DNA of 64,000 bases. Origin: Escherichia coli (GTDB lineage Bacteria > Pseudomonadota > Gammaproteobacteria > Enterobacterales > Enterobacteriaceae). Each line of letters begins with the position of its first letter. Positions within the stretch are counted from its first letter, which is position 1. This document shows, in pieces, positions 35,795 to 39,006 of this stretch. Position numbers and translations under genes: made by a program. The stretch is from NCBI RefSeq assembly GCF_041248615.1, contig NZ_CP158426.1; one strand, written 5' to 3'. The notes beneath the pieces were generated by a model. The model made no database searches, was not told where the DNA came from, and worked only from the letters and a program-made list of their open reading frames with translations.

Positions 35795-36466
35795 GTGGAT
35801 AAGGTTTTAGATTCAGCCATCCTTTCTTCGGCAAATAAAAGAAAGGGTATCCTTGCTATTGGCGCACATCCTGACGATATAGAATTGGGCTGTGGCGCGT
35901 CGCTTGCTCGTCTTGCGCAAAAAGGAATTTATATCGCAGCCGTGGTGATGACTACCGGCAACTCTGGCACAGATGGAATAATCGATCGCCATGAAGAATC
36001 GCGCAACGCCCTAAAGATATTAGGGTGCCACCAAACTATTCATCTTAATTTTGCTGACACCCGCGCGCATTTGCAGCTCAATGATATGATTTCCGCCCTG
36101 GAAGACATCATTAAAAATCAAATTCCTTCTGATGTTGAAATCATGCGGGTATATACCATGCATGATGCCGACCGCCATCAGGATCATCTTGCTGTTTATC
36201 AAGCTTCAATGGTTGCCTGCCGAACTATTCCACAAATTCTCGGCTACGAAACCCCAAGCACCTGGCTTTCATTTATGCCTCAGGTTTTTGAATCCGTTAA
36301 AGAAGAATATTTCACAGTCAAACTTGCTGCATTAAAAAAACATAAAAGCCAGGAACGACGCGATTATATGCGTCATGATCGCCTGCGTGCAGTTGCACAA
36401 TTTCGCGGGCAACAGGTCAATAGCGATCTGGGTGAAGGCTTTGTAATTCATAAAATGATTCTTTGA
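35795..36466 (+). CDS. yaiS: PIG-L/LmbE-family N-acetylglucosaminyl deacetylase-like protein YaiS
   Basis: 223-aa ORF starting at GTG 35795 with GGAG 9 nt upstream; N-terminal AIGAHPDDIELGCG motif and HDADRHQDH metal-binding motif typical of PIG-L/LmbE zinc deacetylases. Confidence 0.85.
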   Translation: MDKVLDSAILSSANKRKGILAIGAHPDDIELGCGASLARLAQKGIYIAAVVMTTGNSGTDGIIDRHEESRNALKILGCHQTIHLNFADTRAHLQLNDMISALEDIIKNQIPSDVEIMRVYTMHDADRHQDHLAVYQASMVACRTIPQILGYETPSTWLSFMPQVFESVKEEYFTVKLAALKKHKSQERRDYMRHDRLRAVAQFRGQQVNSDLGEGFVIHKMIL

Positions 36467-36475
36467 GCAAATTGC

Positions 36476-37672
36476 ATGAAAACCTGGATATTTATCTGTA
36501 TGTCCATAGCAATGTTGCTATGGTTTTTAAGTACGCTAAAACGTAAACCCAGTCAAAAGAAAGGCTGTATTGACGCCATTATACCTGCTTATAACGAAGG
36601 CCCGTGTCTGGCACAGTCACTGGATAATCTGCTGCGTAACCCTTATTTTTGCCGGGTAATTTGCGTAAACGACGGCTCCACGGACAATACCGAATCGGTC
36701 ATGGAGGAAGTCAAACGCAAATGGGGCGACCGCTTTGTTGCCGTCACGCAAAAAAATACCGGTAAAGGTGGTGCGCTGATGAATGGCCTCAATTACGCCA
36801 CCTGCGACCAGGTTTTTTTAAGTGATGCCGACACCTATGTTCCGCCCGATCAAGACGGAATGGGCTATATGCTGGCAGAAATTGAGCACGGTGCCGATGC
36901 CGTAGGCGGCATTCCCTCTACTGCGTTGAAAGGCGCGGGTCTGTTACCACACATCCGCGCGACCGTAAAGTTGCCGATGATTGTTATGAAGCGCACGCTA
37001 CAGCAGCTCGTGGGCGGCGCACCGTTTATTATCAGCGGTGCCTGCGGGATGTTCCGTACTGATGTATTGCGTAAGTTCGGTTTCTCGGATCGTACTAAAG
37101 TCGAAGACCTTGATCTCACCTGGACATTGGTGGCAAACGGCTATCGTATTCGGCAGGCGAATCGCTGCATCGTATACCCACAGGAATGCAACAGCCCGCG
37201 TGAGGAATGGCGTCGCTGGCGGCGTTGGATTGTGGGCTACGCGGTCTGTATGCGCCTGCATAAAAGACTTTTATTTAGCCGCTTCGGTATCTTCAGTATA
37301 TTTCCTATGCTGTTGGTTGTGCTTTATGGCGTTGGGATTTATCTCACTACCTGGTTTAATGAATTCATCACCACCGGGCCGCATGGTGTGGTGTTGGCAA
37401 TGTTTCCGCTTATCTGGGTCGGCGTAGTTTGTGTTATTGGTGCTTTTAGCGCCTGGTTTCATCGTTGCTGGTTGTTGGTGCCTTTAGCGCCGCTTTCCGT
37501 TGTGTATGTATTATTAGCTTATGCCATCTGGATTATTTATGGACTTATTGCCTTTTTTACTGGACGCGAACCTCAGCGCGACAAACCCACCCGCTATTCC
37601 GCACTGGTGGAAGCGTCAACCGCTTATTCCCAACCTTCTGCTACAGGAACTGAAAAACTATCTGAAGCTTAA
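36476..37672 (+). CDS. yaiP: Membrane-embedded family-2 glycosyltransferase YaiP (synthase-type)
   Basis: 398-aa ORF; GT2 motifs IPAYNEG, VNDGSTDNT, LSDADTY and a QxxRW-like EEWRRWRRW; one N-terminal and several C-terminal hydrophobic helices. Confidence 0.85.
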   Translation: MKTWIFICMSIAMLLWFLSTLKRKPSQKKGCIDAIIPAYNEGPCLAQSLDNLLRNPYFCRVICVNDGSTDNTESVMEEVKRKWGDRFVAVTQKNTGKGGALMNGLNYATCDQVFLSDADTYVPPDQDGMGYMLAEIEHGADAVGGIPSTALKGAGLLPHIRATVKLPMIVMKRTLQQLVGGAPFIISGACGMFRTDVLRKFGFSDRTKVEDLDLTWTLVANGYRIRQANRCIVYPQECNSPREEWRRWRRWIVGYAVCMRLHKRLLFSRFGIFSIFPMLLVVLYGVGIYLTTWFNEFITTGPHGVVLAMFPLIWVGVVCVIGAFSAWFHRCWLLVPLAPLSVVYVLLAYAIWIIYGLIAFFTGREPQRDKPTRYSALVEASTAYSQPSATGTEKLSEA

Positions 37673-38231
37673 TGTTAAAGAGAAAAACATTCAGATTGCA
37701 GACCAGGTAATTATTGATGAAACTGCAGGTGAAGTTGTTATCGGCGCGAATACCCGTATTTGTCATGGTGCCGTTATTCAGGGTCCGGTAGTGATTGGCG
37801 CAAACTGCTTGATAGGTAATTATGCGTTTATTCGTCCTGGCACAATAATCAGCAATGGCGTAAAAATTGGTTTTGCCACCGAAATTAAAAATGCGGTTAT
37901 TGAAGCGGAAGCAACGATTGGTCCGCAATGCTTTATCGCCGACTCGGTAGTTGCAAACCAGGCATATTTGGGCGCACAAGTACGTACCAGTAATCATCGT
38001 CTGGATCAACAGCCCGTGTCTGTTCGAACTCCAGAGGGAATTATCGCTACCGAATGCGATAAATTAGGTTGTTATATCGGGCAGCGTTCACGCCTTGGCG
38101 TACAAGTTATTATTTTGCCTGGGCGAATTATTTCCCCGAACACGCAACTTGGCCCGCGCGTGATTGTAGAACGTAATTTACCTACCGGAACTTATTCACT
38201 CCGACAAGAACTTATCCGTACAGGAGATTAA
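37521..38231 (+). CDS. yaiX: Hexapeptide-repeat (left-handed beta-helix) acyltransferase YaiX, intact
   Basis: 236-aa ORF with repeated [LIV]-G-x-x-x-x hexapeptides (VIGANTRICHGAVIQGPVVIGANCLIGNYAFI...); start uncertain because the ORF overlaps the yaiP 3' end by 152 nt in another frame; stop 1 nt before the yaiO ATG. Confidence 0.75.
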   Translation: MPSGLFMDLLPFLLDANLSATNPPAIPHWWKRQPLIPNLLLQELKNYLKLNVKEKNIQIADQVIIDETAGEVVIGANTRICHGAVIQGPVVIGANCLIGNYAFIRPGTIISNGVKIGFATEIKNAVIEAEATIGPQCFIADSVVANQAYLGAQVRTSNHRLDQQPVSVRTPEGIIATECDKLGCYIGQRSRLGVQVIILPGRIISPNTQLGPRVIVERNLPTGTYSLRQELIRTGD

Positions 38232-38232
38232 A

Positions 38233-39006
38233 ATGATAAAACGGACGTTATTAGCGGCAGCAATTTTTAGCACATTGCCCGCTTATGCCGGGTTAACTTC
38301 CATTACCGCGGGCTACGATTTTACCGATTATTCTGGCGATCATGGCAACCGTAATTTAGCGTATGCTGAACTGGTGGCGAAAGTTGAAAACGCAACGCTG
38401 CTTTTTAATCTTTCCCAGGGGCGTCGTGATTATGAAACTGAACATTTCAATGCCACTCGCGGTCAGGGTGCGGTCTGGTATAAATGGAATAACTGGCTGA
38501 CAACCCGAACGGGTATTGCCTTTGCGGATAATACGCCGGTCTTTGCCCGCCAAGATTTTCGTCAGGATATTAACCTGGCACTGTTGCCAAAAACGCTTTT
38601 CACGACCGGTTATCGCTACACGAAATATTACGATGATGTCGAAGTCGATGCCTGGCAAGGCGGCGTATCACTCTATACTGGCCCGGTGATCACCAGCTAT
38701 CGCTATACCCATTATGACTCCAGCGATGCAGGTGGTAGTTACAGCAATATGATTTCCGTGCGTCTGAATGACCCGCGCGGCACTGGTTATACGCAACTAT
38801 GGCTAAGCCGCGGAACAGGTGCTTACACCTATGACTGGACGCCAGAAACACGCTACGGCAGCATGAAGAGCGTCAGTTTGCAACGTATTCAACCGCTGAC
38901 TGAGCAACTTAATCTCGGGCTGACGGCAGGTAAAGTGTGGTACGACACCCCAACCGATGATTATAACGGTCTGCAACTTGCAGCCCATCTGACCTGGAAA
39001 TTCTGA
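38233..39006 (+). CDS. yaiO: Outer-membrane beta-barrel protein YaiO
   Basis: 257-aa ORF with signal peptide MIKRTLLAAAIFSTLPAYAG, alternating aromatic/hydrophobic beta-strands, C-terminal ...HLTWKF; RBS AGGAG upstream. Confidence 0.88.
   Translation: MIKRTLLAAAIFSTLPAYAGLTSITAGYDFTDYSGDHGNRNLAYAELVAKVENATLLFNLSQGRRDYETEHFNATRGQGAVWYKWNNWLTTRTGIAFADNTPVFARQDFRQDINLALLPKTLFTTGYRYTKYYDDVEVDAWQGGVSLYTGPVITSYRYTHYDSSDAGGSYSNMISVRLNDPRGTGYTQLWLSRGTGAYTYDWTPETRYGSMKSVSLQRIQPLTEQLNLGLTAGKVWYDTPTDDYNGLQLAAHLTWKF

Follow-up and report, generated by a model that had tools for sequence, protein, structure and literature searches.

The yaiS-yaiP-yaiX-yaiO cassette of Escherichia coli, a candidate module for synthesis, cytoplasmic editing and export of a glycan

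We examined a 64,000-nucleotide (nt) stretch of an Escherichia coli chromosome (contig NZ_CP158426.1; here the window), lying in inverted orientation with respect to K-12, and within it the compact gene cassette yaiS-yaiP-yaiX-yaiO (35795..39006). Its four open reading frames (ORFs) are intact and co-directional on the + strand, and encode a PIG-L/LmbE-type zinc de-N-acetylase, a GT2 glycosyltransferase, a left-handed beta-helix (hexapeptide) protein and an outer-membrane beta-barrel with a signal peptide; these assignments, first made in a sequence-only reading of this DNA, hold against family profiles. We put it at about an even chance that the cassette builds and releases a hexosamine-based glycan that is edited in the cytoplasm and exported via YaiO. 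The synthase-dependent glycan systems known in E. coli are three, those for cellulose, for poly-N-acetylglucosamine (PNAG) and Nfr. If our interpretation is true, the cassette is a fourth, with N-deacetylation and re-acylation in the cytoplasm and a minimal pore that lacks a tetratricopeptide repeat (TPR) scaffold. It would then be a previously undescribed form of synthase-dependent glycan export or secretion; in the literature that could be searched, no paper connects these genes or describes the cassette. The sequence-only reading, which had modelled the cassette on the Pga and Nfr exopolysaccharide systems, is partly supported: the packed module and its protein classes stand, and the Pga/Nfr logic is not supported.

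The four-gene arrangement recurs far beyond chance. At all 22 loci examined, drawn from Gamma- and Alphaproteobacteria and set in unrelated flanks, yaiS, yaiP, yaiX and yaiO follow one another in this order on one strand, joined by overlaps of 14 nt or 4 nt or separated by gaps of 1–9 nt, and the proposal that they form one module is thereby upheld. Clustering of every flanking ORF at the 22 loci gave no fifth shared gene, the remaining ‘shared’ ORFs being shadow frames of the four genes. When peptide patterns specific to YaiP were searched for in 100,044 species, each represented by one genome, at least 18 true loci came up, a lower bound because exact matches to the patterns were required; these are from Escherichia, Citrobacter, Superficieibacter, Ignatzschineria, Stenotrophomonas, Lysobacter, Pseudomonas viridiflava, Acinetobacter, Sphingomonas and alphaproteobacterial metagenome-assembled genomes. 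Metagenomic contigs of Stenotrophomonas and Acinetobacter carry the PIG-L, GT2, hexapeptide and YaiO proteins in order between unrelated flanks, and the cassette is also kept on a metagenome contig whose barrel has just 21% identity. The YaiP relatives in Xanthomonadales, Acinetobacter and Pseudomonas are 60–69% identical. Among the loci compared, the insertion site between tauA and frmR is found in Escherichia only. The GC content of the cassette follows that of the host, ranging between 29% and 67%, and mostly lies slightly under that of the flanks. Judged by this distribution, the cassette appears to be one self-contained, horizontally mobile unit. For each of the four genes dN/dS is 0.04–0.13 (compared with E. 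whittamii and Citrobacter). These are working genes, selected as a set.

Some E. coli carry, outside the tauA/frmR site, a second and divergent copy of the whole cassette, with a YaiP 78% identical to that of the window (L036, 6335–9544; also L037, L038 and L039). On two contigs of 85–89 kb, which may or may not be plasmids, this copy has as its neighbours the genes for heat-labile enterotoxin, an AraC-type regulator and a chaperone-usher fimbrial operon. A heat-stable enterotoxin fragment is present on the one contig, and insertion sequence (IS) elements on the other. The island is also found, minus the toxin genes, in a 720-kb contig, and 12 PLSDB plasmids, from isolates of pigs, chickens and farm environments, carry at least 80% of it. 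On one of these plasmids, the IncFIB plasmid pSTEC388_2 (NZ_CP041427.1, 8968–12174), the second copy sits between IS1, IS3 and IS66, close to fimbrial genes; no enterotoxin genes were seen near it in the stretch inspected. Carried on conjugative plasmids and beside enterotoxin or fimbrial genes, the cassette may have a product that matters for colonisation, or for phage or immune recognition. Citrobacter braakii ATCC 51113 has two complete cassettes on separate contigs, whose YaiP proteins share 80% and 79% identity with that of the window (L010, L013), and these two may differ in specificity.

yaiP (36476..37672, + strand) encodes a 398-residue inner-membrane protein with one N-terminal and three C-terminal hydrophobic helices (residues ~3–23, 264–294, 301–329 and 330–364). 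It matches the Pfam GT2 families and, weakly, Pfam GT21. The best curated family is PgaC_IcaA (2.6e-29, 102 bits), every other family scoring 43 bits or less, and BLASTP with K-12 PgaC gives 29% identity over 241 residues (E 2e-20); the PgaC equivalog threshold, 422 bits in TIGR03937, is missed. The motifs IPAYNEG, DGSTDNT, SDADTY and EEWRRWRRW that the sequence-only reading had picked out are all in the translation, and the D, DxD, ED and (Q/R)xxRW motifs align with PgaC (YaiP/PgaC pairs NDGSTD/NDGSTD, DAD/DGD, VEDLDLTW/TEDIDISW and, at YaiP 247–251, RWRRW/QRLRW). Residues D66, D117/D119, E210-D211 and R247-W251 are invariant among 33 family members, so the Q of the QxxRW motif is an invariant R in the YaiP family. 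The AlphaFold2 model (pLDDT 81, pTM 0.80) has an N-terminal helix, a GT-A domain, an interface helix bearing RWRRW and three long C-terminal helices; the tail past the last membrane helix, ~36 residues of low confidence, holds no further domain. Hyaluronan synthases are its top Foldseek matches (E 1e-13 to 9e-15, the latter for 8smn; query-normalised TM-score up to 0.64, for 7sp7), followed by the minimal synthase-like mannosyltransferase PcManGT and by the cellulose synthase BcsA (4p00, E 2e-11), in keeping with the synthase-like GT2 enzyme that had been recognised. YaiP has its motif set in common with class I hyaluronan synthases and BcsA, but is smaller, with four helices, R for Q, no PilZ or other regulatory domain, and 14–18% identity. 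No domain binding cyclic di-GMP (c-di-GMP) was found in it, and BLASTP against K-12 NfrB is not significant (E 0.67). By these comparisons YaiP is a membrane GT2 enzyme of the synthase clade, nearest to the PNAG synthases, a homologue of PgaC and not its equivalog.

yaiS (35795..36466, + strand; 223 residues, GTG start) has BshB1 as its best NCBIfam match (2e-22, residues 19–221), at 80 bits against a cutoff of 182, and reaches none of the curated equivalog cutoffs. Among proteins of solved structure, its best relatives are the diacetylchitobiose deacetylases of archaea (E 5e-12, residues 4–218), then LmbE-like proteins and BshB; the nearest of these deacetylate chitobiose or N-acetylglucosamine (GlcNAc)-malate. 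The motifs AHPDDIELGCG and HDADRHQDH are present as quoted earlier, and AHPDD(I/V/L)ELGCG and HQDH are invariant in 18 YaiS orthologues, as are R.Y, FR..Q and E.F toward the C-terminus. The YaiS sequence contains no signal peptide and no hydrophobic or membrane segment. YaiS is like the PIG-L/LmbE enzymes Dac, BshB and MshB in full-length homology, in zinc and catalytic motifs, and in its predicted cytoplasmic location and GlcNAc-glycoside substrate, but its neighbourhood lacks the genes of a thiol pathway or of chitin catabolism. We predict YaiS to be a zinc amidase that works in the cytoplasm on a GlcNAc glycoside.

yaiX (37539..38231, + strand, with a start considered below) encodes a beta-helix of the same subfamily as those of GlmU and ST0452. 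It matches the C-terminal domain of archaeal GlmU (C-terminal part of TIGR03992) at 4.5e-37, and has a gap-free alignment of 158 residues to the acetyltransferase domain of Sulfolobus tokodaii ST0452 (E 2e-21), GlmU coming next; the nearest characterised domains of this kind N-acetylate glucosamine-1-phosphate or galactosamine-1-phosphate. Unlike these enzymes, YaiX is a stand-alone protein without a nucleotidyltransferase domain, and its family has invariant motifs of its own (VRTSNHRLD, KLG and LPGR). The YaiX sequence, too, is without a signal peptide and without a hydrophobic or membrane segment. We regard it as a predicted cytoplasmic, amino-sugar-acyltransferase-like protein. A role as an O-acetyltransferase of WcaF/LacA type was rejected in favour of the GlmU/ST0452 N-acetyltransferase type, the former families scoring 1e-4 to 1e-8 (WcaF-type 5e-5), far under the latter.

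yaiO (38233..39006, + strand; 257 residues, Sec signal peptide MIKRTLLAAAIFSTLPAYA, C-terminal Phe) encodes a protein that belongs over its full length to TIGR04390 (184 bits, cutoff 32) and also matches Pfam YaiO (PF19413) at 4.7e-26. In its model (pLDDT 94) a signal-peptide helix is followed by 14 strands joined by loops of 2–8 residues and ending in TWKF, and nearly all mature residues are taken up by these strands and short loops. Transcription of yaiO and outer-membrane localisation of its product have been reported in work cited by one paper (PMC4453288), and with the signal peptide and the model they support the barrel recognised earlier. The closest folds are the 14-stranded sugar channels CymA and OmpG, at 7–8% identity; YaiO differs from them in having neither long loops nor an N-terminal plug segment, and in being encoded with biosynthetic rather than uptake genes. 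Assignment of residues to lumen or lipid face by strand parity gave no clean separation. The paper just cited treats yaiO as an E. coli orphan gene (PMC4453288), which it is not. In AFDB, YaiO-family barrels occur in many phyla, with longer members of 400–554 residues in Bacteroidota and others. The close family is small, at 118 clusters of 50% identity among 1.84 billion proteins, and its alignment is without any conserved stretch; a profile search reached close relatives only. Two distant matches were set aside as uninformative, one borderline and in unrelated context (P0237), the other cut at a contig end (P0209). A 342-residue variant (P0243; 24 members, 69 contigs) arises by reading through the normal stop into the yaiO-frmR spacer.

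In the pathway that we favour, YaiP would be an inner-membrane enzyme whose GT-A domain faces the cytoplasm. From a UDP-N-acetylhexosamine donor, UDP-GlcNAc being the likeliest, it would build a beta-linked chain in the manner of its relatives PgaC/IcaA and the hyaluronan synthases. YaiS would strip the N-acetyl group from a GlcNAc unit of a primer, an acceptor end or a short product, and YaiX would re-acylate the freed amine, a removal and re-acylation like those of NodB and NodA on the products of NodC, or of LpxC and LpxD. Because YaiS and YaiX are both predicted to be cytoplasmic, the logic would be nearer to NodB/NodC/NodA or LpxC/LpxD than to PgaB. YaiO, with its 14 strands, short loops and no separate plug or periplasmic domain, would then pass the product across the outer membrane. 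What the analysis shows is the gene content and order, with their conservation and purifying selection, the family and fold relationships, the conserved catalytic motifs, the predicted compartments and the promoter; the donor sugar, chain length, order of steps, acyl group, inner-membrane crossing and use of YaiO as exit are what we infer.

Several points weigh against this pathway. At the positions of ST0452 His308, Tyr311, Asn331, Lys337 and Lys340, which we take to be its active-site residues with His308 as the catalytic histidine, YaiX has P, F, N, Q and S; only Asn331 is conserved, and the lost positions are not restored in orthologues. YaiX could use another base, or could serve, without catalysis, as a trimerising scaffold in the manner of the eIF2B and GMPPB beta-helices, which are among its precomputed Pfam matches. 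To pair a deacetylase with an N-acetyltransferase-like protein would seem pointless if both handled the same acyl group. YaiP has four hydrophobic helices where six to eight form the channel in hyaluronan synthase and BcsA, so that YaiP by itself may or may not be able to translocate a polymer. The R-for-Q variant of QxxRW is typical also of lipid-glycosylating GT21 enzymes. The fold match of YaiO chiefly reflects strand number, at a sequence identity of 10% or less. Part of the E. coli population has a damaged or incomplete cassette, as detailed below, and the literature names no product, activity or phenotype for any of its genes.

As a classical exopolysaccharide system of Pga/Nfr type, the cassette would have YaiP polymerise and extrude a long chain, YaiS and YaiX modify it afterwards, and YaiO serve as secretin for a biofilm matrix polymer. 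The cassette is like PgaABCD/IcaADBC in having a PgaC homologue, a de-N-acetylase, a terminal outer-membrane barrel and a compact operon. Yet PgaB is a periplasmic CE4/GH protein where YaiS is a PIG-L enzyme, and YaiS and YaiX, both predicted to be cytoplasmic, could not reach a periplasmic polymer; the beta-helix acyltransferase is moreover an addition to the Pga gene set. A PgaD/IcaD partner is not among the gene families shared by the 22 loci, and no CE4 deacetylase, TPR scaffold or c-di-GMP receptor is present in the cassette or conserved beside it. The YaiP score of 102 bits, against the PgaC cutoff of 422, also speaks against a Pga system. PgaA has a TPR region and a 16-strand porin; YaiO has 14 strands with diffusion channels as closest folds and no TPR domain, and profile comparison of YaiO with PgaA detected no relation (probability 0.3%). 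Comparison with the K-12 nfr locus placed neither the outer-membrane protein NfrA nor YbcH in the cassette or conserved beside it, and the lack of significant NfrB similarity in YaiP was noted above. We therefore consider the Pga/Nfr-type explanation rather improbable.

Another pathway, also unlikely though not negligible in our estimation, would have the cassette make a glycolipid. YaiP would attach one GlcNAc to a lipid of the membrane, such as polyprenyl phosphate or diacylglycerol. On the cytoplasmic face YaiS would de-N-acetylate it as PIG-L does GlcNAc-phosphatidylinositol, YaiX would N-acylate the amine as LpxD does after LpxC, and the glucosamine lipid so formed would remodel the envelope, with YaiO handling a hydrophobic product or acting on it in the outer membrane. 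The best family of YaiP is instead a PNAG synthase and its best folds are polymer synthases; the lipid-type enzymes GtrB, ArnC and DPMS rank lower for the YaiP model, at TM-scores of 0.35–0.38 vs 0.6. YaiO is without a hatch domain of FadL type. Neither a flippase nor a GT-C transferase using a lipid-linked donor is conserved beside the cassette.

In a further variant of the favoured pathway the product would be a diffusible glucosamine oligosaccharide of small size, N-acyl-modified and resembling a Nod factor, which would leave via YaiO; by analogy, YaiP would correspond to NodC, YaiS to NodB and YaiX to NodA, the enzymes being non-homologous. The likeness to NodC-NodB-NodA is one of logic, a membrane GT2 enzyme of the chitin/PNAG-synthase clade, a cytoplasmic de-N-acetylase and a cytoplasmic N-acyltransferase being encoded together, and is an analogy only. 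With one hydrophobic helix at the N-terminus and three at the C-terminus, YaiP also resembles NodC in topology. But the NodC model scores 29 bits on YaiP against a cutoff of 550, covering residues 24–125 only, and none of the three partners is orthologous: YaiS is PIG-L rather than CE4, YaiX has a beta-helix rather than the NodA fold, and the cassette has its own barrel and no ABC exporter of NodIJ type. We hold such a product to be quite unlikely. If it were true, Proteobacteria associated with the gut and with plants, among them E. coli and enterotoxigenic and Shiga toxin-producing strains that bear the plasmids, would make a signalling or host-interacting glycan and not a matrix polymer.

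The spacer between the divergent tauA and yaiS genes (35187..35794) is the regulatory region of the cassette, 608 nt long and AT-rich (~29% GC). A scan found in it a sigma-70 promoter-like site, TTGACA-18-TACAAT (35546..35575, + strand), ~220 nt 5′ of yaiS and in agreement with 11 of the 12 consensus positions. It is identical to the constitutive RpoD promoter of yaiS listed from genomic SELEX, where the spacer is marked as H-NS bound (PMC3946193); the spacer is also listed as an H-NS-associated ‘promoter island’ (PMC3661553). Ahead of yaiO, inside yaiX, is a strong AGGAG. The terminator scan 3′ of yaiO found none: a GC-rich hairpin (39015..39036, + strand; –16.8 kcal/mol) lacks a U tract and is no better than shuffled sequence (z-score –1.18). 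The four genes are probably co-transcribed from this sigma-70 promoter, which would be silenced by H-NS.

The gene junctions had been given in the sequence-only reading as 9 nt, –152 nt and 1 nt. The yaiS-yaiP gap of 9 nt and the yaiX-yaiO gap of 1 nt are exact; the –152 nt reflects only the longest yaiX ORF (37521–38231, 236 residues). Three starts come into question, that of the longest ORF (37521), that of the K-12 annotation (37539, a 134-nt overlap with yaiP) and the CTG chosen by PGAP (37650, a 23-nt overlap). The ATG of MDLLPFLLD at 37539 is the only start conserved among enteric yaiX orthologues, and the comparison favours reading the yaiP/yaiX overlap in enteric bacteria as –134 nt. 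Non-enteric YaiX orthologues begin with a conserved Met-Trp-Trp, with a yaiP overlap of 14 nt. The ancestral overlap was probably a 14-nt sequence like ATGTGGTGGAAnTGA, rebuilt here from protein termini and not from the DNA itself. The ancestral yaiX ATG is gone in six of six enteric loci, E. coli having PHWW at that place, and the enteric loci have also lost the ancestral yaiP stop, so that YaiP is longer by 19 residues in E. coli and by about as much in other enteric copies.

In some E. coli assemblies YaiP and YaiX are fused in frame by loss of one A from the A5 run inside the overlap (37653..37657, + strand), protein P0030 reading ...TGTENYLKLNVKEKN... at this place. A functional fusion, should it exist, would put the YaiP C-terminus and YaiX in one compartment, but a mutation or an error of assembly could also account for it. 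Programmed frameshifting as the means of joining YaiP to YaiX was rejected, as it would need +1; G_AAA_AAC is a –1 heptamer and in the wrong frame, and a 1-nt deletion explains the fusion. As a separate matter, an antisense RNA promoter lies within yaiP on the minus strand (window 36476–37672) and has served as a reporter control in work elsewhere (PMC4666370).

In K-12 two of the genes are broken. Codon 186 of yaiS is changed from CAG to the amber TAG (window 36350–36352), which removes the last 38 residues including family-invariant positions, and yaiX is split by IS2 (the K-12 yaiS/yaiX defects lie at L002 8060–8617 and 4845–6873). With an amber yaiS, an IS2-split yaiX and an H-NS-bound promoter, K-12 genetics has tested a broken and silent system. 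As the sequence-only reading held, these y-genes have no assigned function: no published function was found for any of the four, nor any study of what yaiP, yaiS or the cassette does, a K-12 screen and incidental mentions being uninformative, while the sole yaiX paper (2026) overexpresses a 71-residue K-12 fragment and leaves native function unaddressed. That the cassette has gone unstudied is partly owing to these two broken K-12 genes.

Within E. coli the cassette is near-core. In 4250 of 5426 genomes a single piece covers 80% or more of the region. The yaiO gene is in use as a species PCR marker for E. coli. Against this stand 1170 of 5420 matching genomes in which no single place covers 80% or more of the region, and one may ask whether the cassette is a cryptic, decaying remnant in E. 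coli, silenced, being lost and of no present function in the window strain. The position of the promoter within an H-NS island, the K-12 defects in yaiS and yaiX and the loss of the ancestral yaiX start in enteric bacteria would all fit such decay. Truncated YaiO forms and 319-residue YaiP forms are common in the protein database and point to lineage-specific decay, and O157:H7 strains are reported to lack yaiO (PMC4453288). On the other side, the four ORFs are intact in the window with the low dN/dS given above, and exact 61-mer counts in complete E. coli genomes put the intact CAG allele of yaiS at 2212 and the amber TAG at 355. The reported transcription of yaiO and outer-membrane location of YaiO (cited in PMC4453288) and the maintenance of the second copy on conjugative plasmids also oppose a remnant, and we judge it very unlikely.

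Annotation of the yaiS region differs from ours. In a RefSeq genome 100% identical to the window, PGAP calls yaiS an incomplete pseudogene comprising the first 137 codons (35795–36205), whereas the ORF is full length against every orthologue and against the BshB1 profile. PGAP labels a 39-codon ORF on the opposite strand (36332..36451, – strand) ‘hypothetical protein’; its translation differs by one residue from K-12 YkiC. As the yaiS ORF is intact and full length, ykiC sits antisense within it, at the yaiS 3′ end, and the K-12 amber change in yaiS is synonymous in ykiC (CTG to CTA).

The cassette is flanked on one side by the tauDCBA taurine transporter genes (minus strand) and on the other by frmRAB, and the wider surroundings are ordinary core chromosome, from brnQ and phoBR through lac, cyn and cod to prpE. 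No RNA family was found by Rfam within 35000–39400, and PADLOC gave no anti-phage defence match for any of the four cassette proteins. Upstream of the cassette, an autotransporter gene (yaiT region, window 25949–30233) is interrupted by an IS3-family element, leaving fragments at 25949–28615 and 29919–30233 with the transposase at 28600–29828. A repeat search of the locus returned nothing relevant except a palindrome at frmR. This is a perfect 15-nt inverted repeat, ATATACTATAGGGGG / CCCCCTATAGTATAT (window 39117–39168), which flanks an frmR promoter-like site (39138–39166) and is presumably the FrmR operator.

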